The notes under the pieces: generated by a model
What the model was told of the DNA's origin: nothing
Seen by the model: the letters and a program-made list of their open reading frames with translations, nothing else
Database searches by the model: none
DNA from: Phycisphaerae bacterium
GTDB lineage: Bacteria; Planctomycetota; Phycisphaerae; WQYP01
Direction: 5' to 3'
Assembly: GCA_035548175.1 (NCBI GenBank)
Contig: DASZTO010000073.1
Coordinates: forward strand, 581-64,580
DNA length: 64,000 nucleotides
Shown here: piece after piece, positions 6,808 to 54,772 of the stretch
How the letters are laid out: each line of letters opens with the position of its first letter
Numbering within the stretch: position 1 is the first letter of the stretch
Position numbers and translations under genes: made by a program

Positions 6808-6833
6808 GCGCCCGCCCCGGCGCCCGCGGACCC

Positions 6834-7925: not shown

Positions 7926-8085
7926 CAAAATCCTTTCGTAGAGCGGCAGCGGGGGGAAAACAGACAGTACGACCGATGCCGCGGCGCGGTTCCATGTTGC
8001 GGCGATTCGCGAACAAAAAAGCGCCTGGGCGTGCTGTCCCTTTAACATGACTGATGCACAATGGACAACCCCGCCGCCCTGCTGG

Positions 8086-17270: not shown

Positions 17271-17478
17271 CGTGGTGGGATTGGATGGAGCGGGAAGGGG
17301 CCACCGATGGGCGCCGACGATTGAATTGCGGCGGCATGAAAGGGGTTGGGATTCTTAAGGGGACAGGCGGTGCGGGATGCGCGGGGTATGGAGATTTTAC
17401 AGATATTTGTAAATCTTTTTCTGGGGGGTGAGCGTGTCATGGGTGTGCAGGCGGTGGGCGCGGCGGTGCAGGTGTGGG

Positions 17479-18111
17479 ATGCTGGCGATGTTGGTGGATG
17501 CAGGAAACGGAGTTGGCTGCGTGGAGGCGAGGGTGCCGGAGTCGGATGATGAGGCGCGGGCGGATCGAGCGGCGTTGGAGCGGCTGCGGGCGGGGGATCT
17601 TGGGGGGTTCGACGGGTTTGTGGATCGGTACAAGCAGCGGTTGTTCCGGTATTTGCTGGCGCGGGTGGAGTCGGTGCAGACGGCAGAGGATTTGACGCAG
17701 GACGTTTTTTTGAAGGCGATCCGGAATCCGCCAGGGGATGCGGGGGCAGGGCGGGTGTCGACGTGGCTGTTCACGGTGGCGCAGCGGTGTCTGCAGGATC
17801 ATCAACGGTGGCGGCGGCGTCGGGCGCAGCATGCGGAGGCGGTGATGGCGGCGCGGCCTGCGGGAAGGAGCGTGGATCCGGCGGCGGCGGCGAGCGCGGA
17901 GGAGGAGCGGGTGCGGCTGGCAGCATTGCTGGGGAAGCTGCCGGAGGAACAGCGGGATGTCCTGACGCTGCGGCTGCTGGGGGATTTGTCGATAGCGGAG
18001 ATTGCGGCGGTGACGGGGGCGCCGGAAGCGACGGTGAAATCGCGATTGAAATATGGATTGGAAAAGCTGGCGCGGAGCGTGCCTGGAGCGCTGAAGGAGG
18101 ACCGGCGATGA
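17479..18111 (+). CDS. RNA polymerase ECF-type sigma-70 factor
   Basis: Region 2 (RAGDLGGFDGFVDRYKQRLFRYLLARV...AEDLTQDVFLKA) and region 4 (LPEEQRDVLTLRLLGDLSIAEIAAVTGAPEATVKSRL). The start is taken as the ATG at 17479 inside the longer GTG-initiated ORF. Confidence 0.8.
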   Translation: MLAMLVDAGNGVGCVEARVPESDDEARADRAALERLRAGDLGGFDGFVDRYKQRLFRYLLARVESVQTAEDLTQDVFLKAIRNPPGDAGAGRVSTWLFTVAQRCLQDHQRWRRRRAQHAEAVMAARPAGRSVDPAAAASAEEERVRLAALLGKLPEEQRDVLTLRLLGDLSIAEIAAVTGAPEATVKSRLKYGLEKLARSVPGALKEDRR

Positions 18112-20849
18112 GCAAACCGTTGCCTGCGGACGTAGTGGAATTGGCGGAGACGGCGGAGGAGCGGGAGCTGTTGGAGCGCGCTGCGGGGGCGGCGCGGACA
18201 GATGTGGAACTGGCGGGGGGATTCAACGATCGGCTGCATGAGCGGTTGACGGCACCGGTGGGACGGGCAGGGCGTGAGCGCCGGTGGCGGCAGGTGGCGG
18301 GTCTGGCGGCGATGCTGCTGGTGGGCGCGTGGCTGGGGGCGACGTTGTTTTCACGGGGAGGAAATCCGTTGGTGGGCGGGGTGGCGTGGGCGGATGTGGT
18401 GCGGGCGGTGAATCATGTGCAGCAGTTGCACGTGCTGGCGTATCAGGAGTCGCCGCAGTCGGGGGGAAACATGCCGCCGTTGTCGCGGTTGGATTTGTAC
18501 TACCAGGCGCGGGCGGGAGCGGCGGGAATGTGGCGGGCACAGGGGCTGGGGCACGTGCAGTTTTTGACACCGGGGGAGAAGCCGGAATCGCGGACGTGGT
18601 CGGTGGCGGAGAAGCAATGGACGACCCGGGACAACGTGCGGCTGATTCCGCAGGGGATGACGGGAAAGGTGGAATCGGGAGATTTGCTGGAGGTGGTGCT
18701 GACGTGGATTTTTCATGGGGCGGCACCGGAGGCGCAACCGGTGAAGAACGACGCGCTGACGGGGGCGGGGATCGATGTGTTTGACTATGCAACGGACGCG
18801 GCGTCGCCGTGGGCGCGGATATGGGTGACGCGGGATTCGCGGTTGCCGGTGCGGATCAAGATGTACGCGCCGGCGTCGGATGGCTTTTTGCTGCTGGAGT
18901 TTGATTACGGGGAGGCTGAGCCGGCGGATTTTTTCAATCCAGAGGCGTTTGAGGCGGGGATGGGGCGGTTGGATGCGGAGGCGGCAACGCGACCGGCGCG
19001 GGCGTACGAGATGGGGGCGGCGCCGGTGGACAACCTGCGGCCGCAGACGGCGCGACAGATTCACACGGTGCAGCCGGAGGCGGTGGCGCCGAAGGTAATT
19101 TCGGCGACGCGTCTGGCGTCGGGGGACATCGTGCTGGTGACGACTTCGCCACGGAACGTGAATGCGGGGGGCAGTGCGGATGAATTCGAGTTACACGATG
19201 TGGTGGACGACCAGGGAACGCGATATGCGGCGGAGTGGTTCAGCGAAGGGGTGCATGTGAATGAGGAATCGCCGCGGACGACGTGGCTGATTCCGGTGAG
19301 CGCGCCCGTCGGGGAAGTGAAGTCGGTGAAAGCGCGGGTGTTCACGCGGGCGGCGGAGGCGCAGGAGCTGGGGGAACTGGAAGCGGCGGTGACGGAAGGA
19401 AGCGTGCCGTCTGCGCGTGGTCCGACGGCGGAGGGGCGGTTTGCGGCGTTGCGTGCGTATTGGCAGAACGGGACGGTGGCAGAGCGGCGGGCGTTTGTGG
19501 AGCGGGCGCTGGCGGAGCATCCCCATGATGCGGGGGCGGTGCGGGCGAAGATGGAGTTGCTGTTTGAGCTGGGGAAACGGGAAGAGGGATGGGCGCTGTA
19601 TGAGCAGGAGATGCTGCCGGAGGCGCTGGAGACGCTGCTGGATGATGAGGCGAACGTAACGTTGTTTGCGGGGTATGTGCTCTGGCTGGAGAACCAGGGG
19701 CGCGGGACGGAGGCGAAAGTGCTGACGGAGAAGGGGCGGAAGGTTGTGGAGGAAGCGGCGTTTGGGAAGGATGCGCGGCGGAAGGCGGCGGCGATGCAGG
19801 CATTGCGGCCGGAGGAGTGGAATCTGTTTGGGAAGGTGCTGAAACTGCCGGAATTGGAGTCGTGGGTGGTGGGATCCAACAAGCCGGTGGTGAAGCAGAT
19901 GATTGTGGGAGAGGATGGGGTGGTGGTGGTGCAGGTGGCGTTGCCGGGGAATCTGCCGGCGTCGGTCATGGGGCCGGTGCGCGGTGGCTCGATGGCGGCG
20001 GATTATGCGTTGTGGGCCGGGATGACGGCGGCGGATGTGACGGCGGAGGGACGGGCGGTGTGGCGACAAACCGGGGCGGCGTACGATCCGGCGACACACA
20101 CGCTGGCGCTGGGGTTTCGCGGGAGCGGGAAAAAGTTGACGCTGACGAAGCAGATCACGCTGCTGCAGGATGCGTATCCTTCGGCGGCGGGGGATTTGCA
20201 ATATGCGTGGAAGCTGGCGGTGGCGACACCGGCGGCGTCGACGGAGAGCGCGGCGGCGTGGTGGGCGAAAAATGTGCCGGCAGATCCGAGCAAGTGGTGG
20301 GCGGACCAGCGGCCAGTACCCTCGCCGTTTGATGCGTCGCAGATAGTGGCGGAGGAGGCGTTGCGGGCGGGCCGGAACGCGGAGGCGGCGGGGTTGTATG
20401 GGGAGTTGATCAGAACGCTGGATCGGGCGGGTCCGCCGCCGGGGGTGACGGGGGATAATGCGGTGGCCTTGCGGGATAGTTTGGAGGAGGGGCGCGTGGA
20501 GGCACTGACAGGCGCCGGGGATTTAACGGGGGCGGAGAAGGCTTTGCGGGCGTGGGAGGAAGAGCTGCCGGGGGCGCCGGATTTTCACAAGCGGTTTGTG
20601 GTGGAGCGGTATGAGAAGGTCAATGGGGCGGGGGCAAAGCTGGCGGAGGCATTGATGGATGCGGGGGAGGCGGAGGCGGCGCGGAGGGTGCTGGATGGGC
20701 TGGAGAAAGCGCGGCCGGATTTGAAGGATGAGGTGGACGTGCTGGTGCGGGAGGCGGGGAATGGCGGGGTGTGGTGGTATGTGGGAGAGAATCGGGGGGC
20801 GTGGGTGGCGGTGGATCGGGCACGGTGGCGGATGATGAAGAGCGAGTGA
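18108..20849 (+). CDS. Anti-sigma factor; 913 aa, single-pass membrane protein with a large extracytoplasmic TPR-like domain
   Basis: The ATG at 18108 overlaps the sigma-factor stop as ATGA. The N-terminus is cytoplasmic, followed by a TM helix (VAGLAAMLLVGAWLGATLF) and a roughly 800-aa extracytoplasmic region with TPR-like helical repeats at the C-terminus. Confidence 0.6.
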   Translation: MSKPLPADVVELAETAEERELLERAAGAARTDVELAGGFNDRLHERLTAPVGRAGRERRWRQVAGLAAMLLVGAWLGATLFSRGGNPLVGGVAWADVVRAVNHVQQLHVLAYQESPQSGGNMPPLSRLDLYYQARAGAAGMWRAQGLGHVQFLTPGEKPESRTWSVAEKQWTTRDNVRLIPQGMTGKVESGDLLEVVLTWIFHGAAPEAQPVKNDALTGAGIDVFDYATDAASPWARIWVTRDSRLPVRIKMYAPASDGFLLLEFDYGEAEPADFFNPEAFEAGMGRLDAEAATRPARAYEMGAAPVDNLRPQTARQIHTVQPEAVAPKVISATRLASGDIVLVTTSPRNVNAGGSADEFELHDVVDDQGTRYAAEWFSEGVHVNEESPRTTWLIPVSAPVGEVKSVKARVFTRAAEAQELGELEAAVTEGSVPSARGPTAEGRFAALRAYWQNGTVAERRAFVERALAEHPHDAGAVRAKMELLFELGKREEGWALYEQEMLPEALETLLDDEANVTLFAGYVLWLENQGRGTEAKVLTEKGRKVVEEAAFGKDARRKAAAMQALRPEEWNLFGKVLKLPELESWVVGSNKPVVKQMIVGEDGVVVVQVALPGNLPASVMGPVRGGSMAADYALWAGMTAADVTAEGRAVWRQTGAAYDPATHTLALGFRGSGKKLTLTKQITLLQDAYPSAAGDLQYAWKLAVATPAASTESAAAWWAKNVPADPSKWWADQRPVPSPFDASQIVAEEALRAGRNAEAAGLYGELIRTLDRAGPPPGVTGDNAVALRDSLEEGRVEALTGAGDLTGAEKALRAWEEELPGAPDFHKRFVVERYEKVNGAGAKLAEALMDAGEAEAARRVLDGLEKARPDLKDEVDVLVREAGNGGVWWYVGENRGAWVAVDRARWRMMKSE

Positions 20850-21159
20850 GCGCGGAAGTTTTCGTTGGTGGATGCGGGATGCGTTTTGAGGTGCGAGGCT
20901 GGGATTAGAGGGTTTGTGGATGGCGGGCGTGCGGCGCAGGATGAGGAGGAGGGCGAGGGGGATTGGGGCGGCGAAGAGGGGGGAGGGGAGCGGGGTGGAC
21001 ATGGTGAGGTTGAAGGTGGCGGTCTGTAGGAGCGGGAGGTGGGGCGCCTGACGATACGGGACAAGTGGACGAAGGGAGTTGGGTTGGGGTGGGGGTCCCG
21101 TCGGTGATCTAATTAGGGACTTGCCGGGCGGTCGGGGGGTTGTTGTGCCGGCGCTGACG

Positions 21160-22326
21160 CTACGGGTTCCCTTGGGGGAGGTCGTGGAAGGATTTGGTGG
21201 TGGGGAGGGGCAAGGGGAGGCGTTCGAGGATTTTGAGGAGGCGGGAGGCGGCGTGGCCGTCGCCGTAGAGGTTTTTGCGTTGGGCGATTTTTTTGCGGAA
21301 GGGTTTGTTGGTGAGTGCGAAGCGGATGGCGGATTGGATGGGGCGGAGGGAGGCGGGCGAGACGCCCGCGGTACGAGACCAGGGGACGTCGAGGATGTTG
21401 GGGTTGCGTTCGCGGCCTTTCTGGCGGTCGCCGAGGTTGATGACGGGGAGGGCGAAGGAGGCGGCTTCGATGATGCCGGCGGAGGAGTTGCCGATGAGGA
21501 GCGAGGCCTGGGTGAGGAGCTGCCAGAAATCGGGTTGGGAGAGGGACATGGTGAGGGGGATTTTGGCGGCGGTGTAGGCACGGAGGATGCCGGTGTGGCC
21601 GGGGTCGTTGTTGGGGCCGATGGCGGTGAAGGGGATGTTGGCGGCGCGGAGGGCGCGGAGGAGGAGGGAGGTGCGTTTTTGTTCGAGGGCGTCGTCTGGG
21701 GAGGAGGGGTGGAGAAGGAGTAGGGCGGAAGGGTTTGACAAGGTGACAGGGTGACAAGGTGACGAGGTGAGGAAGGCGGCGAGGGTGTCGAGGGCGGGGG
21801 CGCCGATGACGTGGATCGTTTTGGGATCTTCGCCCATTTGTTGGATGCGTTGGGCGGCGCGATTGGTGGCGGGGAAGTGGCGGTGGGCGAGTTTGGTGAT
21901 GGCGTGGCGGATTTGTTCGTCCCAGGTGCCGGGTGCGGTTTCGCCGCCGTGGAGGTGGGCGATGGGGATGTGGGAGACGAGTGCGGCGTTTGCGGCGGCG
22001 AGCATTTCGAGGCGGTCGCCGAGGAGGAGGAGGAGGTCGGGTTTGAGGACGGCGAGTTCTGCGCCGAGCCTGGTGACGGCGTGTCCGAGTGATGCGGCGG
22101 GAGGATCGTCGGGACGGTACATGTCGACGACGGCTTCGATGGGGATGCCGGAAGCTTCGACGTCGCGGATGGTGTAGCCGAACTGCGGTTGGAGGTGCAT
22201 GCCGGTGACGATCAATTGGGGGCGGAGATTTTTGGATTTTTGGAGGGCGTGGAGGATGGGGGTCCAGATGCCGAATTCGGCGCGGGTACCGGTGAGGATA
22301 GCGATATTGCGAAGGGAACTAGCCAC
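21160..22326 (-). CDS. neuC: UDP-N-acetylglucosamine 2-epimerase (hydrolysing), NeuC type
   Basis: IAILTGTRAEFG, LIVTGMH, LLLGDRLEMLAAANAA, IPIAHLHGGE and HPVTL all match NeuC/SiaA. GTG start at 22326. Confidence 0.85.
   Translation of the reverse strand: MASSLRNIAILTGTRAEFGIWTPILHALQKSKNLRPQLIVTGMHLQPQFGYTIRDVEASGIPIEAVVDMYRPDDPPAASLGHAVTRLGAELAVLKPDLLLLLGDRLEMLAAANAALVSHIPIAHLHGGETAPGTWDEQIRHAITKLAHRHFPATNRAAQRIQQMGEDPKTIHVIGAPALDTLAAFLTSSPCHPVTLSNPSALLLLHPSSPDDALEQKRTSLLLRALRAANIPFTAIGPNNDPGHTGILRAYTAAKIPLTMSLSQPDFWQLLTQASLLIGNSSAGIIEAASFALPVINLGDRQKGRERNPNILDVPWSRTAGVSPASLRPIQSAIRFALTNKPFRKKIAQRKNLYGDGHAASRLLKILERLPLPLPTTKSFHDLPQGNP
21734..21770. repeat. Imperfect GGTGACAA octamer tandem array inside neuC; a 30-nt segment is 29/30 identical to 26184-26213
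   Basis: TTTGACAA GGTGACAG GGTGACAA GGTGACGA GGTGA. It is in frame and encodes TSSPCHPVTLS. Confidence 0.6.
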
Positions 22327-22368: not shown

Positions 22369-23415
22369 TCAGGCGATGTCGTTGGGGGTGAGGGTGGTGT
22401 TGGCGGGGAGGGGACGGGTGAGTGTTTTGCCGAGGGTTTGTTGGTAGAGGGCGGCGGGGATGCCGGTGCCGGGGCGTTTGACGGTGAGCATGTCTTTGGT
22501 GAGGAGGGCGCCCTTGGGGAGGGGTTTGGTAGTGGTGAGGGATTGGCGGGTTTGTTGGCGGATTTGGCGTTCGCGGGGTTGGGGGGATTTTTCGTAGGGG
22601 CCGCGCATGGCGTGGGCGGTGGCGGCGAGGCGGATGTAGTCGGCGAGTTGGGGGGGGTCGAGAGAGGCGGCGTGGTCTGGGCCTTTGCGGGTGCGGTCGA
22701 GGGTGAGGTGCTTTTCGAGGACAGACGCGCCGGCGGCGACGGCGAGGGCGGCGGTGAGGGTTTCCATGGTGTGGTCGGAATAGCCGATGGGAATTTGCGG
22801 GTAGCGGTTACGCATGACGGTGATGGCGGCGAGGGTGGCGTGGTTGGGGGGCGTGGGGTAGCTGCTGACGCAGTGGAGGAGGATGGTGCGGTCGAGGGCT
22901 AGCGCATCGGCGAGCCAGCCGCGGGTGCGGTCGATTTCTTCGAGGTCGGCGGCGCCGGTGGAGAGGATGAGGGGGAGGTTGGTGGCAAGGGCGGCTTCGA
23001 GGAGGGGGAGATTAACGAGGTCGGGGCTGGCGAGCTTGATGGCGTCGACGTGCATGTCGACGCAGGCGGGGACGAGCTCGGGGGAGAAGGGGGTAACGAT
23101 GGCGGCGAGGTTGAGGGCGTGGGCGCGGGCGACGAGGGGGGCCATTTTTTCGGGGGGGAGTTCGAGGGGCTTGAGGAGGTCGTCTGCGCCGGCGCCGGAT
23201 TCCACGCTGGATTTCTGGTAGTCGACGAGGGCGGCGCTTTGGGCGAGGAGGCGGTCGGCTTCGAAGAGCTGGAATTTGACGGCGTGGGCGCCGGCGCGGT
23301 GGGCGGCGTCAACGAGCTGGGCGGCGATGTCGGGTGAGCCGTCGTGGTTGACGCCGATCTCGGCGAGGATGAAGGGCGGGCCGTCGCGGGTGATGTCGGT
23401 TGTTCTGATTTGCAT
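22369..23415 (-). CDS. neuB: N-acetylneuraminate synthase with a C-terminal sialic acid synthase antifreeze-like (SAF) domain
   Basis: ILAEIGVNHDGS, AVKFQLF, ILSTGAADLEEI, GYSDHT and a C-terminal SAF domain (LLTKDMLTVKRPGTGI). Confidence 0.9.
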   Translation of the reverse strand: MQIRTTDITRDGPPFILAEIGVNHDGSPDIAAQLVDAAHRAGAHAVKFQLFEADRLLAQSAALVDYQKSSVESGAGADDLLKPLELPPEKMAPLVARAHALNLAAIVTPFSPELVPACVDMHVDAIKLASPDLVNLPLLEAALATNLPLILSTGAADLEEIDRTRGWLADALALDRTILLHCVSSYPTPPNHATLAAITVMRNRYPQIPIGYSDHTMETLTAALAVAAGASVLEKHLTLDRTRKGPDHAASLDPPQLADYIRLAATAHAMRGPYEKSPQPRERQIRQQTRQSLTTTKPLPKGALLTKDMLTVKRPGTGIPAALYQQTLGKTLTRPLPANTTLTPNDIA

Positions 23416-23444: not shown

Positions 23445-23530
23445 TTGTCCACAAAAGCACACGAACGGACACGAATTTATCTAATTTGGCGTCTATTTGT
23501 GTTCATTTATGAGCATTTGTGGACGCGTGG
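23445..23530 (+). repeat. Repeat-family fragment R4 spanning the neuA 3' end and the neuA-neuB spacer
   Basis: TTGTCCACAAAAGCACACGAACGGACACGAATTT...TTTGTGTTCATTTATGAGCATTTGTGG. The last 11 codons of neuA (TRPQMLINEHK) are encoded by repeat sequence. Confidence 0.45.
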
Positions 23531-24332
23531 GGTTTTGCTGGGCGCGAAGCATGGCTTCGGCGAGGTAGAGGTCTTTTTCGGTGTCGATGTCGACGGAGTC
23601 TTCGGGGGAGACGATAAGGCCGCGGCGATCGGCGCCGAGGAAGGCGTGGGGGTCTTCGGGGTGGTTTTCGGCTTGCATGAGGACGCCGGTTTTCATGACG
23701 TAGACGGCGCCGGTGGGGGAATAGAGCGGGGGGAGGTCCTGGCGGCGGAAGATGGTGTTGGGGATGTGCTTTTGGATTTGATTTGAGTTGGGGTTGAGGT
23801 CGAACATCCAGTAGGGGTGGAATTTGCCCACAGATGCGATGGTTTGGACGGAGTCGGCGCCGGTGTCGAGCAACATTTGGATGCAGCGGTCGATCATGTT
23901 GTCCGTGCGGATGGGGACGTTGCCGTAGAGCATGACGATGGCGCGCGGAAGATCAGAATTAACCACGGAGGACACGGAGGGCACGGAGATTGGATTTTTG
24001 ATTTTCTCTGCCTCCGTGTTCTCCGTGGTTTCAAAGGAATGCGGATAGAGCGAGCGGACGGCGTGGCGGAGGACGGGGTCGGTGGCGCTGGCGGCGGTCG
24101 CGAGCTCGGGGGGGCGGAGGAGGGTTTCAAAGCCTTCGGAGTGGGCGAGGGCGAGGATGTCGGGGGAATCGCTGCTGACGATGGTGCGGGTGATAAGGGT
24201 GGATTGGCGGGCGTGGTCGAGGGTGTAGGCGAGGACGGGTTTGCCCAGGAGGGGCCGGAGGGATTTGTTGGGCAGGCCGACGGAGCCGGCGCGGGCCATG
24301 ATGACGGCGAGGATGTGAGGCGCGGTGGCCAT
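23493..24332 (-). CDS. neuA: N-acylneuraminate cytidylyltransferase (CMP-Neu5Ac synthetase) carrying an in-frame palindromic-repeat insertion
   Basis: ILAVIMARAGSVGLPNKSL...GKPVLAYTL...IVSSDSPDI...AIVMLYGNVPIRT (the QPTSPLR-equivalent motif). ATG at 24332. A roughly 30-aa loop (FETTENTEAEKIKNPISVPSVSSVVNSDL) is encoded by repeat R5. Confidence 0.8.
   Translation of the reverse strand: MATAPHILAVIMARAGSVGLPNKSLRPLLGKPVLAYTLDHARQSTLITRTIVSSDSPDILALAHSEGFETLLRPPELATAASATDPVLRHAVRSLYPHSFETTENTEAEKIKNPISVPSVSSVVNSDLPRAIVMLYGNVPIRTDNMIDRCIQMLLDTGADSVQTIASVGKFHPYWMFDLNPNSNQIQKHIPNTIFRRQDLPPLYSPTGAVYVMKTGVLMQAENHPEDPHAFLGADRRGLIVSPEDSVDIDTEKDLYLAEAMLRAQQNPTRPQMLINEHK
23955..24030. repeat. Palindromic repeat-family copy R5 inserted in frame within neuA
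   Basis: Arms AACCACGGAGGACACGGAGGGCACGGAG and CTCTGCCTCCGTGTTCTCCGTGGTT flank an AT-rich 17-nt loop. The head is about 90% identical to R1 12705-12738. Confidence 0.65.
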
Positions 24333-24334
24333 GG

Positions 24335-24724
24335 TTAACGAGGTCCAGGAAATGCGACGAAGTTTTCGACAAATACCAGAAATAGAGCGAAGGCGAGAGC
24401 ACAGAGGAGATGAAAGAGGCTGATGAGGATAGCGGCGATGGGAAAGGCGAAGCCGTGCCATTGATCGGGGTGTTTGCGAATTTGGTAAATAGTGAGGACC
24501 GCGATGATCAGGCACGCCAGGGGAGCGACAATGAATCCCGTTATCGCAATGATCGTGAAGGCAGTGGAGGCGCCCTCGGGAAGCAGATACGTCGAGAGGT
24601 AAGCGAGTTCAGGAACGAAGGCGAAAATGAAACAGGGGATGGCGCGGGGATGTCGCCGGGAGCGCGTGGTTGCGTAGGGGAGGAGGGGGTCAGGGGCGAG
24701 GGGTTGTGAGGGTTGAGAAGTCAT
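24335..24724 (-). CDS. Small integral membrane protein of unknown function
   Basis: The ATG at 24724 overlaps the upstream stop as ATGA. 129 aa with three predicted TM helices. Confidence 0.5.
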   Translation of the reverse strand: MTSQPSQPLAPDPLLPYATTRSRRHPRAIPCFIFAFVPELAYLSTYLLPEGASTAFTIIAITGFIVAPLACLIIAVLTIYQIRKHPDQWHGFAFPIAAILISLFHLLCALAFALFLVFVENFVAFPGPR

Positions 24725-26400
24725 GCGCGGTGCCACTCCGTGCAGGTGGTGCAGGGGGTGGGGTAGGAGGCGTCGGCGTGCTGTTGGCGGAGGGTGGTGA
24801 GGGCGGGGCTGGTCCAGAGCTGGGCGAGGGAGTGGGAATCGATGTTGCCCAGGGGCAGGGTGTCGTGAGGGTCCTGGTCGCAGGGGACGGCGGTGCCGTT
24901 GGAGCGCAGGAGGAGGCGGTCCCAGAGGCGGCGGCAGGGGCGGCGTTTGGGGGGGGCCATGTCGATGACGGCGGTGGGCGGGAGTGTGCCGGCGCGGGTG
25001 GTGGGAGAATCGATGACGGCCCAACCGGCCTGGGAGATCCAGGTATCGAAGAAGGGTTCGAGTTCGGGGATGGTGTCGCGGACTTTGAGGAGGCGCGGGA
25101 TGACGAGGGGAAGGCCGTGGTTGGCGCGGGTGGCGGCGGCGAGTTGGAGGAGGTTGGCGGAGAATTTTTCGTGGAAGGAGGTGTTGGAGACTTTGTTGTA
25201 GGTTTGGGGCGTGTGGCCGTAGGTGGTGATGGTGAGGATGTCGAGGAAGTTTTCGGAGATGGCGGTGAGGAGGGGGTCGAGGTTGTCGGCGAGGAGGTCG
25301 GTTTGGAGGCAGATGCTGAGGGGTTTGGCGTTGCGGGCGGCGCGGAGGACGGCGAGGAGGTGGGGATAGAGGAGGGGGTCGCCGTCGCCGGCGAAGGTGA
25401 GGAGGAGGTCGTCGGGGAAGTGTTGTGAGGCGAGCCAGCGGGTCCAGTGGACGGGGTCGAGGTGGCCGCGGGCCTGGCGGATGATTTGCGGGACGGAGCC
25501 GGGGGGGTTGGTGAGGCGGTTGGGGGTGAGTTCGATTTCGAGTTCGCGCGGGGCGGTGTGGGTGCGGGAGAAGTCGGTGACGCCGGGGGCGACGGAGCGT
25601 GCGGCTTCGAGGGCGAGAGCGGCGGGGGAGATGGAAATGACTCCTGACCCCTTTTCTCGTGAAGGGGAAGTAGAAATGACTCCTGACCCCTTTTCTGGCC
25701 AGGCGCGGTCGGTGTCGAGGAGGAAGCGGTTGGGGATTTTGGAGAGGGCGGGGTCGACTTGCATGCAGGCGTCGCGGATGAGGGTGTCGAACTGGGGGTT
25801 GGCGGGGTCGTAGGCGAGGAGCTGCCAGGGCATGACTTTTTTGTCGCCCATTTCGAGGGCGATGTCGGCGCGGAGCATGAAGCCGGTGAGGCCGGGGGCG
25901 GCGGGGGTGTAGGTGATGCGCATTTCGTGGTTTTTGTGGAGGTGGTGATGGAGGAGGGCTTCGGTGAGGGGGACGTCGAGGAAGGCGGCGTGGGAGTGGA
26001 TGGCGAGGATGTGGTCGGCGTTGAAGGTGCGCGCGGCGTGGGCGATGGCGGCGGGATGGTACTCCTCGTCGAAGACGGTGAACTGGCCGGCGCCGCCGCG
26101 CCAGGAGAGGAGGTTCCAGGGACGGGCGGCGCGGATGCGGGCGGAGATGGCTTCGGGGCGGGCGATGAGCGGTGTGGTGGACACGGTGACAAGGTGACAA
26201 GGTGACGAGGTGAATTGTTGGGCGAGGGGGAGTTGGGGTTCGGGGGCGGCGAGGAGGATGTGGGTGAGGCCATGGACTTGCTGGAGGCGGTCGAGGACGT
26301 GAGTGAGGATGGGTTTTCCGGCGAGGGGGTCGCGGAGGCGGGAGCGCGTGCCGATGGCGGTTGTGTCGAAATCGCAGCAGATGACGGCGAGGATGTTCAT
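24721..26400 (-). CDS. Fusion of a NeuA/SpsF-like cytidylyltransferase domain with a degenerate radical-SAM-like core (no CxxxCxxC) and a SPASM-like Cys-rich C-terminus
   Basis: N-terminus MNILAVICCDFDTTAIGTRSRLRDPLAGKPILTHVLDRL is nucleotidyltransferase-like. The middle has ELEIELTPNRLTNPP where radical-SAM enzymes carry CxxxCxxC, plus a GGEPLL-like FAGDGDPLLYP. The C-terminus is PCRRLWDRLLLRSNGTAVPCDQDPHD...LGNID...PCTTCTEW. It contains a perfect 39-nt tandem duplication and the shared octamer segment. Confidence 0.5.
   Translation of the reverse strand: MNILAVICCDFDTTAIGTRSRLRDPLAGKPILTHVLDRLQQVHGLTHILLAAPEPQLPLAQQFTSSPCHLVTVSTTPLIARPEAISARIRAARPWNLLSWRGGAGQFTVFDEEYHPAAIAHAARTFNADHILAIHSHAAFLDVPLTEALLHHHLHKNHEMRITYTPAAPGLTGFMLRADIALEMGDKKVMPWQLLAYDPANPQFDTLIRDACMQVDPALSKIPNRFLLDTDRAWPEKGSGVISTSPSREKGSGVISISPAALALEAARSVAPGVTDFSRTHTAPRELEIELTPNRLTNPPGSVPQIIRQARGHLDPVHWTRWLASQHFPDDLLLTFAGDGDPLLYPHLLAVLRAARNAKPLSICLQTDLLADNLDPLLTAISENFLDILTITTYGHTPQTYNKVSNTSFHEKFSANLLQLAAATRANHGLPLVIPRLLKVRDTIPELEPFFDTWISQAGWAVIDSPTTRAGTLPPTAVIDMAPPKRRPCRRLWDRLLLRSNGTAVPCDQDPHDTLPLGNIDSHSLAQLWTSPALTTLRQQHADASYPTPCTTCTEWHRA
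25634..25711. repeat. Perfect 39-nt in-frame tandem duplication (24/24 identical core) of lower GC content
   Basis: GAAATGACTCCTGACCCCTTTTCT at 25634-25657 and again at 25673-25696. It encodes EKGSGVISTSPSR / EKGSGVISISPAA. Confidence 0.7.
26184..26213. repeat. GGTGACAA octamer array inside the cytidylyltransferase/rSAM-like gene; 29/30 identical to the neuC segment
   Basis: CGGTGACAAGGTGACAAGGTGACGAGGTGA. It is in frame and encodes TSSPCHLVTVS. Confidence 0.6.
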
Positions 26401-28520
26401 CGTGCGGCTCCGGCGACTTCGCGCGGCCAGGGCTTGTTTTGTTGGAGGGCGTCGCGCTGGCGGTGGAGGCGGGCGAGGGCTTCGTCGAGGACGGCGAGGA
26501 GGCGTTCGGCGCCGGTTTGCAGGTTCTGCACGTAATCGATGTCGCGCAGGAGCTGGCGTTTCTGGCGGTCGAGGGAATCGGCCTTGGCGGTTTTGACGGA
26601 GAGGTCGGCGTTGAAGCGGCGGAGCTCGCCGATGGTGTTGAGGAAGACGACCATGTCAAAGGTCTGGGGATCGGTGTTGACCTTGGCGCGCTGGCGATCA
26701 ATTTCGGCGAAGAGGCGGTGCATGGCGGCGGGGTCGGTCTGCTTTTCGATCATCTCGTGGAGCAGGGGGATGGTGCGCTCGCAGGTTTCCTTCATGTCAG
26801 CGGCTGAGAGGCGGCGGGATTCGAGGGCGGCGATGGTGGTTTCGAGGGCGCGGGGTTGGTCGGTCGTCCAGGCTTTCCAGGGAGCGTTTGCCGGTAATGG
26901 GTAACTGGTAATTGGTAATTGGCAGTATTGGTCGATGGCGTCGCGCAGGGTCATGCGGGTGACGTGCTGTTTTTTGGCGCCGCCTTCGGTGGCGTCGATG
27001 ACGGTGTGGCGGCTGGCGGCGAAGTCGCGTTCGAATTGCTGGAGGTAGACGAAGAATTGTTCTTCGGTGTACATGGGGTGGCCGTGGATGTCGGGGATTT
27101 TGCGGAGGATGGTTTTGGAGCGGGCGATGCGTTCCCACTCCTTGGTTTCGAGGGTGTTGAAGCGGGAGAGTTCGGGCGACCACGTTTCGTGGATGGCGGT
27201 GCCGGGCTTGTAGTAGAGGCCGTCGACGAAGCCGAGGTCCTGGCCGATGAGGATGATGGGGTTGCAGCCGAGGAATTCGGCGAGGTAGAAGGAGAGGTGG
27301 GCGACGGTGGCGCCGGCTTTGAGACCGGCGCGGGTGGGGAAGGCGTCGCGGAGGAGTTTGGCGGCGAAATCGTTGTGCAGCAGCGTGATCCCCCCCCCAC
27401 CGCCGGAGCCGGAAAAAGTGTCGAGGACGTTCCAGTTGGCTTTGGCTTCAGCGACGAGGTGGAGGCGGTGCAGCGGGCCGCCGGCGCTTTCTTCGAGGTT
27501 TTCGAAGAAGCGTGTGGAGACGGTGTTGTAGTCGAGGGAGGTGACGAAGTCGGGCTCGATGCCGGCGGCGAGGAGGGGTTTGAGCATCGTCTGGACGGCG
27601 ATGATGACGGCTTTCCGGCCACGGCCGTCTTGGTCGCCTTTGATTTCGTGGAGCAGGTGCATGTTTTTCTGGAGGCTGGGGCCGGCGGCGACGAGGATGG
27701 CGGGAACGTTGGGGTAGGCGTTTTGCAGGAGGTCGAGGGTGGGAGTCGTGGCGTAGCGGCCGATGTTGTTGGCGACGTTGCGGCAGGTGGCGACGTTGTT
27801 GAGCATGAGGGTGAGGAAGCCGGTGCGGGTGAAGGAGACGAACTCGGTGATGAGTTTCTGGAAGGCGGAGAAGAAGCCGGCGGCATCGGCCTGGATGCTG
27901 GCGGGGTGGGCGGCGAAGAGGGTTCCCGCGCCGGCGGTGAAGAGGACGGAGCGGGGTTCAAGGCGGTCGACGAGGTGGCCGCGATCGAGGGAGGTGAAGA
28001 TCAGGAGGCGTGCGGTGCGGAGGGGTTCGGCGAGATCGGCGACGGAGAGAGCGGCTTTGAGGAGGGGGAGGTTGGGTTCGGCGACGATGAGGAGTGCGTC
28101 GTGGGGCATGCGGTCGAGGAGGGCGCGGATGTGGTGGCCGAGGCCGAAGCCGGAGACGGCGACGACGTAGCGGTCTTCGCAGGCGACGGCGGCGGCCCAG
28201 TTTTCGGCTTCGTGAAGGGGGCGATAGCGGGAGTGGAGGTAGACCTGGCGGCCCCCCGGCCCCCCCCCACCGGTCGGGGCGGCGAGGGGCCCGGGTCCCG
28301 ATTGCGCTGGGGGAGTTGTCATGACGCGGACGGTCGGGTATCCATCCTTAGCGGTCTCGAGGACCGGCACATCTGCGGGATGCACCGCGTCGATCGCCAT
28401 GGCGAGGCGGGCATCGGTCTGAAAAAGCGCCGAAAGGTTGCGAACATAGGTGGCGTGTGCGTCCGTAAGGAAGGGCGCAGGCGTATCGGGCGCGGCGGCG
28501 AGGGCAGCGGCGTCGGTCAT
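26397..28520 (-). CDS. Motility-accessory-factor (Maf) / DUF115 (MptE-like) family protein; putative nonulosonic-acid glycosyltransferase
   Basis: DUF115 core NVPAILVAAGPSLQKNMHLLHEI...AVIIAVQTMLKPLLAAGIEPDF with a long helical C-terminus. The ATG at 28520 is preceded by AGGAGG; the stop overlaps the next gene as ATGA. Confidence 0.7.
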   Translation of the reverse strand: MTDAAALAAAPDTPAPFLTDAHATYVRNLSALFQTDARLAMAIDAVHPADVPVLETAKDGYPTVRVMTTPPAQSGPGPLAAPTGGGGPGGRQVYLHSRYRPLHEAENWAAAVACEDRYVVAVSGFGLGHHIRALLDRMPHDALLIVAEPNLPLLKAALSVADLAEPLRTARLLIFTSLDRGHLVDRLEPRSVLFTAGAGTLFAAHPASIQADAAGFFSAFQKLITEFVSFTRTGFLTLMLNNVATCRNVANNIGRYATTPTLDLLQNAYPNVPAILVAAGPSLQKNMHLLHEIKGDQDGRGRKAVIIAVQTMLKPLLAAGIEPDFVTSLDYNTVSTRFFENLEESAGGPLHRLHLVAEAKANWNVLDTFSGSGGGGGITLLHNDFAAKLLRDAFPTRAGLKAGATVAHLSFYLAEFLGCNPIILIGQDLGFVDGLYYKPGTAIHETWSPELSRFNTLETKEWERIARSKTILRKIPDIHGHPMYTEEQFFVYLQQFERDFAASRHTVIDATEGGAKKQHVTRMTLRDAIDQYCQLPITSYPLPANAPWKAWTTDQPRALETTIAALESRRLSAADMKETCERTIPLLHEMIEKQTDPAAMHRLFAEIDRQRAKVNTDPQTFDMVVFLNTIGELRRFNADLSVKTAKADSLDRQKRQLLRDIDYVQNLQTGAERLLAVLDEALARLHRQRDALQQNKPWPREVAGAAR

Positions 28521-28583
28521 GGGACCTCCTGCCGGTGCAGGCGGGGGGCGGAAAGTTGACGGCGGCATCTTTCAAGGGGCAGC

Positions 28584-29285
28584 ATGATGGAGATTATCGG
28601 TCAGGTGGCGGGTGCCGCATTCACCCTTTTCAGCCAGGGAGGGGGGCTGGGGGGGATGGTGCTGGGGTTAATCCGGGCGCCGGCGCTGCCGGAGTCAATG
28701 GAAGCGTTCCTGTTTGAGAATCATTGGCTGTATTGGGCGATCGGCCTGGCGCTGGGTCTGACGCTGGCGTATCGGGGCCGGACGCTGACGAACCAGGGGA
28801 TGCTGCGGGTGGGGGTGGCGATCGCGGCGGTGGCGGTGTTGTGGGGGGGAGCGGCGCTGCTGGTGGATACGCCGGCGGAGCGGTTGTACGCGGCGCACAA
28901 GGGGATGGCGGCGGCAGCGGCGGCGGGGGATGTCGACAAGCTGGTGGGGTATCTGGCGAACAACTTCACCTGCCCGCAACTGGACATTGAGGACGCGCGC
29001 GATTCCCGGGAGGCGCTGGAGGCGGCGCTCAAGGCGAATGGCATAAAGGGAAGCACGATCACGAGTTATCACAGTACGATCAACCACGGCGTGGCGCAGG
29101 TGTCGCTGACGCTTTTGACGGAGACGCAGGGGGGAGCGGTCAAGACAAACTGGCGGCTGACGTGGGCGGATGTTCCGGGAGAGGATTGGCGGATACAGGA
29201 GGCGGAGTTGGAGGCGGTGGACGATCAGCCGGTGAACAGCGATTTTCGCATTCCTAAACAGGGGGGCGAGCTGCCGGGGTTTTGA
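28584..29285 (+). CDS. Membrane protein of unknown function
   Basis: Three to four TM helices at the N-terminus (AIGLALGLTLAY, GVAIAAVAVLWGGAALLV) and a soluble C-terminal half; SD AAGGGG. Confidence 0.45.
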   Translation: MMEIIGQVAGAAFTLFSQGGGLGGMVLGLIRAPALPESMEAFLFENHWLYWAIGLALGLTLAYRGRTLTNQGMLRVGVAIAAVAVLWGGAALLVDTPAERLYAAHKGMAAAAAAGDVDKLVGYLANNFTCPQLDIEDARDSREALEAALKANGIKGSTITSYHSTINHGVAQVSLTLLTETQGGAVKTNWRLTWADVPGEDWRIQEAELEAVDDQPVNSDFRIPKQGGELPGF

Positions 29286-29372
29286 GCGGGCGGAGAGCGG
29301 GGAGTGCGGGGGGTTAAGGGATTGGAGTGAAGGACCGATAGAGTGGGTAACGAACTCCAGAGGAGACCCACC

Positions 29373-30260
29373 ATGTCGCAGGCCGACGTGCCAGTCGCAC
29401 CCGCCAAGGACCCGCAGGCGATCATCAACGACGCGATCAACGCGGTGTCGCACATTGCGACGCTGCCGGAGATCACGGTGAAGATCATCCAGTTGGTGGA
29501 GAATCCGAAATCCACCGCGCAGGATCTGCACAAGCTGATCTCGAACGATCCGGCGCTGGTGGCGCGGATTCTGAAGGTGGTCAACTCGGCGTTTTACGGG
29601 TTGCCGGGGCAGATCGGGTCGATCAACCGTGCGATCGTGCTACTGGGTTTGAACGCGGTGAAGAACATCGTGATCGCGGCGTCGCTGGCGAAGCTGTTCA
29701 GGGGCGGACGGGTGTCGGCGCAGTTCTCGGCGAAGGAATTGTGGTCGCACTCGGTGGGCGTGGGCGTGATGGCGAAACTGATCACCGGCAAGCTCAATGG
29801 GCAGCTTCCGGATGAAGCGTTCCTGGCGGGACTGATTCACGACATCGGCATCCTCGTGGAATTGCAGTCGATGCGGGAGTCGCTGGTGGAAGTGGCGGAG
29901 AAGGCGACGCGCGAAGAACGGCGGTATATCGACATCGAGACGCAGGTGATCGGAGTGGATCACCAGGCGCTGGGCGCGGGGCTGACGGCGAAGTGGAAAT
30001 TCCCGCGCAGCTTCCAGTATGTGACGGGGCATCATCACCACCCGATGGCGCTGGCGATGGAGTGCCGGTGGCTGGCGTGCGTGGTGCACGTGGCGGACCA
30101 CGTGTGCACGCGCGAGAACATCGGGTATTCGCTGACGTGCAAGGGGGAGGCGCTGGATCCGGCGGTGCTGGAGGAGTTGAAGCTGCCGATGGAAACGGTG
30201 AACGAGCTGGCGAAGCAGTTGCCCGAGGCGCTGAAGGAAACCGAGGCGCTGTTGTCGTGA
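29373..30260 (+). CDS. HDOD-domain (HD-related output domain) signalling protein
   Basis: LPEITVKIIQLVENPKSTAQDLHKLISNDPALVARILKVVNSAFYG...LWSHSVGVGV...LAGLIHDIG. The ATG at 29373 has AGGAG 7 nt upstream. Confidence 0.7.
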   Translation: MSQADVPVAPAKDPQAIINDAINAVSHIATLPEITVKIIQLVENPKSTAQDLHKLISNDPALVARILKVVNSAFYGLPGQIGSINRAIVLLGLNAVKNIVIAASLAKLFRGGRVSAQFSAKELWSHSVGVGVMAKLITGKLNGQLPDEAFLAGLIHDIGILVELQSMRESLVEVAEKATREERRYIDIETQVIGVDHQALGAGLTAKWKFPRSFQYVTGHHHHPMALAMECRWLACVVHVADHVCTRENIGYSLTCKGEALDPAVLEELKLPMETVNELAKQLPEALKETEALLS

Positions 30261-53894: not shown

Positions 53895-54163
53895 GTCGCG
53901 TGCTCCAGCCCCGACCCCACTTCCGCCCTCCGCCGCGCCTGCTCCCCCGACATCTCCTTGCAGCGGCACTGCCACGCGGCGGCCAGCACCAGATGCCGCA
54001 GCCGCTCCGTGTCGCACGCCTTCAGAAACGCCTCGGAAAAATCGAGCGGAAATCCCGGATGCAGTTCCCCCAGGCGACGCAGCAACGCCTCCCGCCCCAG
54101 CGGCGCCAATTCGACGATCAGCGATTCGTAGACCTCGGCGGTGCTCACGGCCGCGCCTCGCAA
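53888..54163 (-). CDS. Hypothetical protein (weak call; TTG or GTG start)
   Basis: 91-aa ORF downstream of and co-oriented with 54201..54506. No ATG start and no recognisable domain. Confidence 0.25.
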   Translation of the reverse strand: MRGAAVSTAEVYESLIVELAPLGREALLRRLGELHPGFPLDFSEAFLKACDTERLRHLVLAAAWQCRCKEMSGEQARRRAEVGSGLEHATQ

Positions 54164-54200
54164 CTGGCCGGCCGCCCCTTCACCCCGCGCGATGCCCGCG

Positions 54201-54506: not shown

Positions 54507-54630
54507 GGCGGATATTCCTCCACCAGGCCCTGTTGCAAAGCCCATGGCAGGCGAGGCGGCCGCGAAAAATAGCGCGCAACCTCCCGAAGCACTGGTATTT
54601 GCCGTCGATCCATGAACACACGGTTTGTAA

Positions 54631-54708
54631 CGGTTGTAGCGATGTCCCAGAAAACCAGACCCAACGTCATCGCAGGCCGTGGCTTGTTTTCCACAGCCGC
54701 TACAACCG
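54631..54708. promoter_or_regulatory. 11-bp perfect inverted repeat (CGGTTGTAGCG / CGCTACAACCG) enclosing a 56-nt loop in the queA divergent promoter region
   Basis: Arms at 54631-54641 and 54698-54708, 65-140 nt upstream of queA. The region has no ORF and is moderately AT-enriched. Confidence 0.35.
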
Positions 54709-54772
54709 CTTCGCTCCGCACACGCCCGACTAATCCTGCGGCCCGCGCGCACGCTCCGGCTCGAGGCCGCCC

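Follow-up and report, generated by a model that had tools for sequence, protein, structure and literature searches.

Gene X, which encodes a three-domain protein of 559 amino acids, lies in the stretch of Phycisphaerae DNA analysed here (64,000 nt, "the window") in an operon that opens with a gene for a Maf-type flagellin nonulosonate glycosyltransferase (Table 1). The open reading frame has exactly the bounds given in the initial annotation of the window and lies on the reverse strand; that annotation had placed it in a sialic acid operon, a context borne out by the CTP_transf_3, NeuB and NeuC-type epimerase genes that accompany it. X is identical to a database protein (P0001) labelled "SPASM domain-containing protein [Phycisphaerae bacterium]", and its AF2 model has a pLDDT of 89. 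Read from the sequence, its cysteines stand at positions 8, 9, 68, 212, 364, 489, 507, 550 and 553. A search of the PDB sequences with the single X sequence gave no significant match, and we found no paper on the X family in the literature on spiro-SPASM proteins, Maf, radical SAM enzymes and flagellin or nonulosonates; a paper on Treponema flagella mentions a glycan and no X-like gene.

Table 1. Genes of the cluster and features of protein X, with positions in the window.
Feature	Position	Strand	Basis
Maf-type flagellin nonulosonate glycosyltransferase gene, 723 aa	26397..28568	-	Pfam MptE-like PF01973 E 2.4e-33; NCBIfam FlagModPseD E 2.8e-18
X, three-domain protein, 559 aa	24721..26400 (stop codon included)	-	ATG start
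X, N-terminal domain, aa 1-232: divergent SpsF-type cytidylyltransferase fold, altered P-loop CDFDTTAIGTRSRL	25705..26400	-	
X, family-specific insertion, aa 82-115: R93, W95, W100-R101-G102-G103, D111-E112	26056..26157	-	gap in 6oew alignment
X, variable linker, aa 233-282	25555..25704	-	pLDDT <50 at aa 238-254
X, radical-SAM-like partial barrel without cluster-binding cysteines, aa 283-485	24946..25554	-	fold matches; TIGR04321 match aa 326-557
X, degenerate cluster loop ELEIELTPNRLTNPPG, aa 285-300	25501..25548	-	alignments with motif-keeping relatives
X, GGE-motif remnant FAGDGDPLLYP, aa 336-346	25363..25395	-	family alignment
X, twitch-type C-terminal domain, aa 486-559; C489, C507, C550, C553	24724..24945	-	Pfam SPASM; BtrN register
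Small hydrophobic (probably membrane) ORF, 129 aa, between X and the NeuA-like gene	24335..24724	-	no Pfam family
NeuA/PseF-like CMP-nonulosonate synthetase gene, likely start 24332	23493..24332	-	CTP_transf_3 E 2.1e-17; TIGR03584 PseF E 2.3e-28, below cut-off
NeuB-family nonulosonate synthase gene	22369..23415	-	Pfam NeuB E 1.8e-65 and SAF domain
NeuC-type UDP-GlcNAc 2-epimerase gene	21160..22326	-	Pfam Epimerase_2 E 6.7e-67

The likeness of the N-terminus to NeuA/SpsF-type enzymes, proposed initially, was upheld by structure prediction and profile-profile comparison. The N-domain has the nucleotidyltransferase alpha/beta fold and is homologous, at the profile level, to SpsF-type and CMP-nonulosonate cytidylyltransferases (6oew; PseF, NeuA, KdsB; PF02348), with probabilities of 94% against the neighbouring CTP_transf_3 proteins and 91% against 6oew; D142, R225 and D229 align with conserved SpsF-type positions (PLID, YRLTIDT). 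It differs from these enzymes, however, in several respects. The Pfam scan of X yielded no significant nucleotidyltransferase match (NTP_transf_3, PF12804, E 0.24; no PF02348). In the P-loop alignment CDFDTTAIGTRSRL of X stands opposite MARAGSVGLPNK, the conserved Arg and Lys being absent and the signature having become (A/C)D(L/F)xxxxLGxxSRL, while the operon has a separate gene for a genuine CTP_transf_3 enzyme. X also carries a 34-aa insertion that the alignment with the N-domain of the spiro-SPASM proteins (see below) leaves as a gap as well. With 8 of the 34 positions conserved at 90% or more among 315 members, this insertion is the densest such segment of X, and the N-domain as a whole has the lowest dN/dS within the protein.

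For the centre of X, the initial annotation had claimed a radical-SAM-like core without the cluster cysteines, and structure prediction together with profile comparison confirmed both halves of that claim. The partial TIM-barrel radical SAM fold was found by structure prediction and fold matching, the matches being SuiB, DesII, BlsE, SkfB, BtrN, viperin and MoaA. Where motif-keeping relatives carry ...EIEITTRCxLHCxWCP, X has the degenerate loop ELEIELTPNRLTNPPG (ELEIELTPNRLTNPP at aa 285-299, read from the sequence); the loop itself is ELTPNRLTNPPG versus TTRCxLHCxWCP, i.e., a Pro-rich loop has replaced the cluster loop in the alignment. No CX3CX2C occurs anywhere in the whole protein, and X does not match Pfam Radical_SAM (PF04055), a family that is matched by a sister clade (P0072 type) and by the motif-keeping members. 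The FAGDGDPLLYP motif is present as noted initially; its G338 and G340 are near-invariant, and position 341 is D in X and E in motif-keeping members, so that the motif of X reads GDGDP. The T-N ribose motif is T367-D368 in X, and in the target clade the canonical SAM-binding residues have drifted from E341/N368 to D341/D368. The only conserved cysteine outside the C-terminal domain is C212, in the N-domain. The SAM-cleaving [4Fe-4S] cluster cannot be held by the X barrel. It could be argued that X has remained a radical SAM enzyme, whose cluster is bound by non-canonical ligands or supplied by a partner, since the barrel fold and the G-x-G-D/E-P-L-L motif are retained and the P0072-type sister clade still matches Radical_SAM. 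However, with no three-Cys set, a Pro-rich loop in place of the cluster loop, D at both positions 341 and 368 and no PF04055 match, cryptic activity of this kind is hardly credible and we reject it.

A SPASM-like Cys-rich tail had also been proposed, and here only part of the claim stands. Pfam SPASM (PF13186) matches aa 489-554 above its cut-off (E 2.4e-11; 44.2 bits, cut-off 21.5), and TIGR04085 gives 20 bits, under its cut-off of 27. The pattern of the tail is P-C489-x17-C507, followed by LGNI (517-520), W529 and P-C550-TT-C553. Seven-cysteine SPASM domains, which hold two auxiliary clusters, have the pattern CX9-15GX4C ... CX2CX5CX3C ... C, of which X possesses only C489-X12-G502-X4-C507 and C550-X2-C553, ending six residues past the latter cysteine. 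A full two-cluster SPASM domain is ruled out by these four cysteines (CX17C...CX2C). The tail has instead the properties of a twitch domain, a truncated SPASM fold with four or three cysteines and one cluster, as in the radical SAM enzymes BtrN (4m7t/4m7s), SpeY, DesII and BlsE. The X family profile matches the twitch region of BtrN (E 2.6e-6) with the cysteines in register: C507, C550 and C553 align to C187, C232 and C235 of BtrN, and C489, 18 residues upstream of C507, stands at what we take to be the position of BtrN C169. In BtrN the auxiliary cluster is ligated by four cysteines and the radical SAM cluster by C16/C20/C23 (PMC9012708). Since the four tail cysteines match the four BtrN auxiliary-cluster ligands, the tail is twitch-like rather than a two-cluster SPASM domain, and it is predicted to be able to hold one auxiliary cluster. 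BtrN lacks an N-terminal nucleotidyltransferase-like domain, whereas X lacks the radical SAM cluster site.

The architecture of X was not recognised in the initial annotation but it is that of a named, uncharacterised spirochaete family, the "spiro-SPASM protein" (TIGR04321), which is the best NCBIfam match of X and of every family member tested. Both consist of an N-domain (~220 aa in TIGR04321), a radical SAM barrel and a four-Cys C-terminal domain; the N-domains align with 82% probability in hhalign (E 1e-5, 166 columns), and spiro-SPASM genes, like X, are found near an SpsF-type CTP_transf_3 gene. However, X scores 91 bits (cut-off 250; true members ~555) and covers model positions 276-506 only. 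The spiro-SPASM proteins keep CX3CX2C, do not have the W-R-G-G...D-E insertion of X and group apart from it in the tree (100% bootstrap); the X clade can be regarded as their sister, with scores under the TIGR04321 cut-off. Gene calling at two spirochaete-type loci gave no Maf gene, and a 325-aa gene adjoining the spiro-SPASM gene gave no match in a Pfam scan. Another family, the "pseudo-SAM/SPASM protein" TIGR04347, marked by its title as a "pseudo" homologue of radical SAM/SPASM proteins, weakly matches the motif-keeping relatives (E ~1e-11 for P0119) and does not match X. Its members presumably lack the cluster cysteines too and would then be a precedent for cluster-less relatives of radical SAM enzymes, although we take them to come from another taxon and context and to have no nucleotidyltransferase-like domain.

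The X family comprises 563 representatives of 50%-identity clusters (E<=1e-30), its taxonomic breadth beyond Phycisphaerae and Planctomycetota being read from a few source-given names. Full-length orthologues with 45-88% identity to X occur in many MAGs. CX3CX2C is absent from 311 of the 315 full-length relatives and from all 57 close homologues, while all four twitch cysteines are kept in 288 of the 315 (91%). The dN/dS of X is 0.30-0.44, near that of the neighbouring NeuA and NeuC genes. This Cys-less state, conserved and under purifying selection, settles a question that the initial annotation had left to its orthologues: X is not the product of recent pseudogenisation. The reading of X as a decaying pseudogene or an annotation artefact could only appeal to the loss of the defining catalytic motif and to repeat-derived in-frame insertions in its loops, such as the one in the linker that stems from an exact 22-nt direct repeat (25634-25655 and 25673-25694), at a site where homologues have other insertions. 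It is refuted by conservation (563 cluster representatives with full-length orthologues, an intact frame of 559 codons, the dN/dS values, a confident AF2 model and conserved translational coupling) and we regard it as practically untenable.

A few relatives (P0119, P0214, P0216, and P0146) have the same architecture and retain TxxCxxxCxxCP at the same site, which shows that X descends from a radical SAM enzyme; for P0214 the Maf-X-CTP_transf_3 context was confirmed. In P0215, which is nested within a motif-keeping clade (94-100% bootstrap), the cysteines have been cleanly replaced by S/A/S. The rare motif-keepers and this replacement imply repeated losses of the cluster in descendants of a genuine radical SAM enzyme. 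Deep nodes in the tree have 10% support, and we consequently limit the claim to loss on more than one occasion and do not place the motif-keepers at the base. Judged from the sequences, the loss of the SAM cluster in the X family is ancient, repeated and selected, and X represents a conserved lineage, derived from radical SAM enzymes of the spiro-SPASM type, that has lost the cluster. In databases the family goes by the labels "SPASM domain-containing protein" and "radical SAM protein", yet hardly any of its members is capable of radical SAM chemistry. A SPASM or radical SAM annotation in a glycosylation island may consequently be unsafe ground for inferring such chemistry.

In the window the TGA stop codon of the Maf gene overlaps the ATG of X (ATGA), and an ATGA or GTGA overlap of this kind is found at at least 12 other loci, some of them from the same genome. 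At all planctomycete-type loci examined whose upstream flank was long enough (L001-L006, L008-L019 and L020-L022), the gene immediately preceding X is Maf, and in two of these (L020 and L021) the Maf-X pair occurs without Neu genes. Natural Maf-X fusions are also known, namely P0155, P0207 and a cluster represented by P0210 (35 members from several MAGs); MCH8259570.1 and MEX2671825.1 are examples of such fusions. X is co-transcribed with the Maf gene and apparently translationally coupled to it, and, as far as gene order tells, its tightest genomic link is to Maf and not to the Neu genes. Downstream, the ATG of the 129-aa ORF overlaps the X stop codon, and an ORF at the same position is present in L008 (88% identity) and L009 (30% identity). 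X adjoins both Neu-type and Pse/Leg-type gene sets and is, therefore, not tied to one sugar. No flagellin gene was found in the window, a point that counts against the partner reading proposed below, and a Pfam scan of the divergent hypothetical genes adjoining maf gave no match. An HDOD signalling gene adjoins the cassette in most Phycisphaerae loci, and the Maf partner at L022 has a glutaredoxin-like Pfam match.

Because Maf always adjoins X in the planctomycete-type loci and is fused to it in others, X is probably an uncharacterised Maf partner. The reading that we prefer, by a modest margin over its being wrong, is that X, as a cluster-less radical SAM descendant, would work with the Maf flagellin nonulosonate transferase as a partner subunit that does no radical chemistry. 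Among the two roles offered by the initial annotation, the overlap, the fusions and the Maf-X pairs without Neu genes would favour a non-radical scaffold over an enzyme acting on CMP-nonulosonate. Operon coupling and gene fusion are, however, also known for enzymes that catalyse successive steps of one pathway. Furthermore, the invariant residues R93, R101, D111, E112, D142, D205, R225 and D229 of the N-domain and E290, D331, D387 and D452 of the barrel are more suggestive of an active site than of a docking surface. X could thus be a non-radical enzyme, with Maf as the next step in the pathway, whose N-domain or new acidic barrel site acts on a nonulosonate intermediate or CMP-sugar, modifying or activating it, for example by a second nucleotidyl transfer, hydrolysis or epimerisation. 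Besides the invariant Arg, Asp and Glu cluster and the three residues shared with SpsF-type enzymes, this would fit the CTP_transf_3 gene that adjoins X in the target clade and in the spirochaete spiro-SPASM loci, and the sugar- and nucleoside-modifying twitch enzymes (DesII, BlsE, BtrN, and SpeY) among the proteins closest to the barrel in structure. However, NeuC, NeuB, NeuA and Maf already make up a complete sialic-acid-type pathway, X stays with Maf where no Neu genes are near and is fused to Maf rather than to NeuA, its P-loop is without the Arg and Lys of CMP-sugar synthetases, and it accompanies more than one type of sugar gene set. We consequently give an enzymatic role of this kind about one chance in four.

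As a Maf partner subunit, X would no longer perform radical chemistry. Its working part would be the conserved N-domain, with the W-R-G-G...D-E insertion and D142, R225 and D229, which would most likely bind the CMP-nonulosonate donor (or CTP/CMP), or else be a docking site for Maf or flagellin. The other half, barrel and twitch domain, would be a structural relic, in which the remaining Fe-S cluster may be stabilising and, in some lineages, dispensable. The role of X may resemble, without kinship, that of GlfM, a cis-encoded Maf-2 specificity factor. GlfM is the product of a maf-adjacent gene proposed to act with the Maf-2 flagellin glycosyltransferase, and provides a precedent for tripartite Maf systems; its predicted structure, a small four-helix bundle, is unrelated to that of X (bioRxiv 10.1101/2023.12.03.569772). 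X too is encoded in cis with maf, and synteny, the stop/start overlap and the natural fusions are what point to its putative partnership.

The 91% retention of the four twitch cysteines is much constraint for a purely structural relic and argues against this part of the partner reading. Their persistence despite the loss of radical chemistry might mean that X senses oxygen or redox state through the twitch [4Fe-4S] cluster and so turns the Maf-dependent glycosylation of flagellin on or off, a role with which the glutaredoxin-like match of the Maf partner at L022 and the HDOD gene next to most Phycisphaerae cassettes would agree. However, several lineages, Maf fusions included, have no Fe-S cysteine left while the rest of X is kept, and twitch clusters with cysteine at every ligand position, as in BtrN, are buried and of low potential (PMC9012708). 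We therefore regard a sensor function as improbable. In the P0207 and P0210 fusions and several others all four twitch cysteines are gone, and in P0207 and P0210 WRGG, DE and PPGL can still be seen. We infer from this that the Fe-S half of X may be dispensable in some lineages, the N-domain being the essential part.

A more far-reaching version of the partner reading, which we put forward tentatively and hold to be more doubtful than not, is that X is an obligatory third component of the planctomycete Maf flagellin-sialylation machine, its N-domain, with the W-R-G-G...D-E insertion, capturing CMP-nonulosonate for Maf or presenting flagellin, and that its family records the repeated conversion of a radical SAM enzyme into a non-catalytic subunit, by stepwise loss of the SAM cluster, the SAM-binding residues and the auxiliary cluster, with fusion to Maf as the last step. 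Maf-type flagellin glycosyltransferases are hard to reconstitute and missing components have been suspected (bioRxiv 10.1101/2023.12.03.569772); the X family would be a concrete and widespread candidate for such a component in the Planctomycetota. It also offers an unusually complete natural series from radical enzyme to pseudoenzyme, which runs from members that keep the motif, through those that have lost only its cysteines and those that have lost the SAM-binding residues as well, to Maf-fused forms without an Fe-S site.

X, the 559-aa protein combining a cytidylyltransferase-like N-domain, a barrel and a cysteine-containing tail, is encoded by one ORF of exactly the extent proposed in the initial annotation, and direct reading of its sequence recovered all motifs quoted there, i.e., ELEIELTPNRLTNPP (aa 285-299), FAGDGDPLLYP (aa 336-346) and the tail pattern P-C489-x12-G-x4-C507 ... 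LGNI ... W529 ... P-C550-x2-C553. The whole sequence holds nine cysteines and lacks CX3CX2C. SPASM (PF13186; E 2.4e-11 over aa 489-554, with a score exceeding the gathering cut-off) is the sole Pfam match by sequence; Radical_SAM gave no match in X and NTP_transf_3 was sub-threshold (E 0.24). The top NCBIfam model is TIGR04321, 'spiro-SPASM protein' (91 bits vs. a cut-off of 250, aa 326-557). A GenBank MAG protein, 'SPASM domain-containing protein [Phycisphaerae bacterium]', is identical to X.

Features of the Maf-X-Neu region of the window
Feature	Position	Strand	Remarks
HDOD-domain gene	29343-30260	+	HD-related signalling; adjoins the cassette
Maf gene	26397-28568	-	MptE-like, E 2.4e-33
X	24721-26400	-	directly 3' of Maf; ATG start
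Loop segment of X, aa 64-78	~26167-26211	-	SSPCHLVTVSTTP
22-nt direct repeat in X	25634-25655, 25673-25694		GAAATGACTCCTGACCCCTTTT, exact
Hydrophobic ORF, 129 aa	24335-24724	-	between X and the NeuA-like gene; no Pfam family
NeuA/PseF-like CTP_transf_3 gene	23493-24515	-	340 aa with the upstream GTG as called start; Pfam match and homologues begin at ATG 24332 (279 aa)
NeuB gene	22369-23415	-	
NeuC-type epimerase gene	21160-22326	-	
ORFs without Pfam match	17300-21160	both	~4 kb downstream of the NeuC-type gene
ORF with weak TPR match, 1028 aa	17763-20849	+	possibly a spurious match, as the composition is skewed

The best PDB sequence for the family profile is BtrN (E 2.6e-6), and C507, C550 and C553 of X align to its C187, C232 and C235. 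The C489-C507 spacing of 18 residues equals that of C169-C187 in BtrN, where C169 is presumably the counterpart of C489. Because X ends six residues past C553, the CX5CX3C...C part of SPASM is missing and a full SPASM domain is ruled out. The SPASM-like Cys-rich tail of the initial annotation holds with regard to the Pfam match, but the domain is twitch-like, with a site fit for one auxiliary cluster.

AlphaFold2, run on an alignment of 55 sequences, yielded a confident model of X (mean pLDDT 89, pTM 0.89) in which disorder is confined to a linker at aa 238-254, and Foldseek agreed with this picture. Profile-profile comparison of the N-domain gave 94% with the operon's own CTP_transf_3 proteins and 91%, over the full length, with 6oew (SpsF type), which indicates homology to both. 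The conserved D142, R225 and D229 align to PLID and YRLTIDT, two motifs of 6oew, and the P-loop is altered (CDFDTTAIGTRSRL vs. MARAGSVGLPNK). Relative to the aligned cytidylyltransferases X carries an insertion at aa 82-115, absent from 6oew and from the spiro-SPASM N-domains in the alignments; since P0214, a relative that retains CX3CX2C, has it too, the insertion tracks the Maf-linked family and not Cys loss. It is also the segment of densest conservation (8 of 34 positions), taking positions kept in at least 90% of 315 members and ignoring insert-column artefacts: R93, W95, W100, R101, G102, G103, D111 and E112. The remaining positions at this threshold lie elsewhere in the N-domain (D142, P169, G170, Y197, P199, P202, D205, R225, D229), in the barrel (P284, E290, D331, G338, G340, T367, D387, Y401, P431, F450, D452, W454) and in the twitch region (P483, R486, C489, G502, C507, D510, G518, W529, C550, C553, W556).

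The Cys-less state, for which the initial annotation had weighed recent pseudogenisation, is a conserved one. None of the 57 full-length homologues of the first search has CX3CX2C; they share the conserved replacement loop ELT-x-x-RLT-x-PPG. An exhaustive profile search expanded the family to 563 representatives of 50%-identity clusters (E<=1e-30), nearly all full-length (~540 aa); the motif is lacking in 311 of the 315 full-length members collected, 288 of which keep all four twitch cysteines. X is under purifying selection, with dN/dS values of 0.44 and 0.30 against its orthologues in the Phycisphaerae loci L008 and L009, respectively, compared to 0.49 and 0.25 for NeuA and 0.52 and 0.32 for NeuC; the lowest values within X are those of the N-domain (0.31 and 0.17). 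A decaying copy is thus rejected, as the Cys-less state is conserved and dN/dS is comparable to that of NeuA and NeuC, and we give the pseudogene explanation little weight.

Four members (P0119, P0214, P0216 and P0146) retain the textbook motif at the exactly homologous site (e.g., P0214 EIEITTRCGLHCAWCP, P0146 EIEVTNRCKMQCSFCP). P0176 retains CxxC and P0093 the first Cys only. In P0215 (EIEVTTRSRLQAAWSP), nested within the motif-keeping clade with 94-100% bootstrap, the replacement is a clean C-to-S, C-to-A and C-to-S, and the outgroup, made up of spiro-SPASM proteins from spirochaetes, possesses CX3CX2C and the four twitch cysteines throughout. Together these show that the ancestor was a real radical SAM enzyme and point to loss of the cluster on more than one occasion, with deep branching that is poorly supported. 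Judged from its sequence, X cannot bind the canonical cluster; a cryptic radical enzyme is given slight weight.

Decay of the radical-SAM features is graded. The canonical E341 (GGE) and N368 (T-N) occur in all motif-keeping members and in 56 Cys-less ones, P0070 among them; P0072-type proteins still have a Pfam Radical_SAM match; in the target clade the two residues are D341 and D368, and such a match is lacking. TIGR04321 scores follow the same order as residue decay, from 555 bits (spirochaete) through 184-209 (motif-keeping), 122-131 (sister clade) and 91 (X) to 59-82 (Maf-X fusions). The family illustrates, step by step and in nature, how a radical enzyme becomes a pseudoenzyme. Cluster-less radical-SAM/SPASM homologues are an existing concept, NCBIfam having a 'pseudo-SAM/SPASM' family.

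The architecture, unfamiliar to the initial annotation, is that of TIGR04321, although X differs from this family in scoring below its cut-off, in lacking the cluster, in its insertion, its link to Maf and its phylum. The neighbourhood differs in two spirochaete-type loci (L007, 650-7256, and the P0219 locus), where the genes after spiro-SPASM encode a conserved hypothetical protein of ~320 aa without Pfam family, an SpsF-type CTP_transf_3 (nearest PDB match of the L007 copy: 6oew), a methyltransferase of ~600 aa, an amidase and an ATP-grasp ligase; L007 also has FlaA nearby, and no Maf gene was called in either. This looks like a nonulosonate-tailoring operon, its radical SAM gene being without described function.

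In the window the Maf to NeuC-type genes form a gapless run of six on one strand, the Maf TGA overlapping the X ATG (ATGA) with GGAG nine bases upstream. The order Maf-X-NeuA-NeuB-NeuC recurs in every target-clade Phycisphaerae locus with enough flank (L001, L002, L004, L008, L009, L011, L012, L014-L016; L013 is less clear towards its end), mostly with an ATGA or GTGA overlap. The same four-base overlap occurs in L020, L021 and L022, and in the sister-clade loci L020 and L021 the pair stands without nearby Neu genes. The P0214 locus reads FliD-FliS-(TP0873_N)-Maf-X-CTP_transf_3, and after these come PglD-like, dehydratase and aminotransferase genes. This assigns the Maf-X module to flagellar glycosylation without restricting it to a single sugar. 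Natural Maf-X fusions have three representatives (1209-1233 aa), including P0155 (MEX2671825.1, a Phycisphaeraceae MAG) and P0210, a cluster of 35 members from several MAGs (e.g., MCH8259570.1). None of the four twitch cysteines is left in the fusion lineages P0207 and P0210, nor in a few other members; WRGG, DE and PPGL are still present in both fusion lineages.

Co-encoding, overlap and fusion with Maf, together with an N-domain kept despite Fe-S loss, suggest that the retained function most likely resides in the N-domain and the Maf association. Radical chemistry would have been dispensable several times, in some lineages along with all Fe-S binding, the protein and its N-domain motifs being kept regardless. 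We lean, with moderate confidence, towards X as a non-radical partner of Maf; it is a candidate for the third component in Maf systems. The N-domain seems to keep part of the ligand site of cytidylyltransferases, and the simplest guess for its role there is that it binds CMP-nonulosonate, CTP or CMP; alternatively, the insertion may dock Maf or flagellin. GlfM sets a precedent for a Maf enzyme that depends on a partner encoded in cis (bioRxiv 10.1101/2023.12.03.569772), but is structurally unrelated to X. The invariant charged residues look catalytic and would suit a non-radical enzyme of the sugar pathway, which we consider rather unlikely; a role as sensor receives small weight. A literature search found no paper dealing with the X family or with radical-SAM-like proteins encoded in Maf loci.

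Several further features of these loci were observed. The small hydrophobic ORF, which looks unannotated, starts with an ATG overlapping the stop codon of X (GCATGA) and ends 3 nt short of the ATG of the NeuA-like gene; it recurs at this position in L008 (88% identity) and L009 (30%) and is absent from L011 and L014, where the X-NeuA gap is ~30 nt. The first 61 codons of the NeuA/PseF-like ORF look non-coding, and its product carries an extra segment, TENTEAEKIKNPISVPSVSSVVNS, when compared with other CTP_transf_3 proteins. The HDOD gene, possibly linked to flagellar regulation, lies on either side of the cassette in most Phycisphaerae loci (73-97% identity; L002, L004, L008, L009, L013-L016, L018). 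In L022 the Maf protein (6821-9004) has an N-terminal glutaredoxin-like match (PF05768) fused to the MptE-like domain, which may have a bearing on whether the twitch cluster acts in redox.

GC skew in the window is extreme and varies smoothly over the contig, its sign going with the DNA strand irrespective of which strand is coding; it is strongest at 13000-36000 and 54000-64000, and L008, L012, L013 and L015 are also concerned. On the + strand it is ~0 over the first 9 kb, lies between +0.4 and +0.49 from 13 to 36 kb, is back at 0 around 45 kb and reaches -0.33 to -0.42 in the stretch from 58 to 64 kb, with GC3 skew of single genes up to -0.85. Oppositely oriented neighbours (28584-30260, +; 58465-62538, -) have coding-strand skew of opposite sign, and the orthologous Maf-X-Neu cassette ranges from -0.44 in L008 to +0.5 to +0.62 in L012. 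Such skew must bias amino-acid composition; X has a high content of Pro, His, Thr and Leu. The 22-nt repeat (0 expected by chance) encodes EKGSGVISTSPSREKGSGVISISP in the disordered linker (aa ~236-258), where other Phycisphaerae orthologues have different insertions (EKGSDPFF, TLSPCHLVTVSP, AQSWHGRPAHDG, TRRQGDKV), and the segment at aa 64-78 is missing from 41 of 55 homologues. These in-frame insertions have the look of small dispersed repeats that inserted into loops able to tolerate them.
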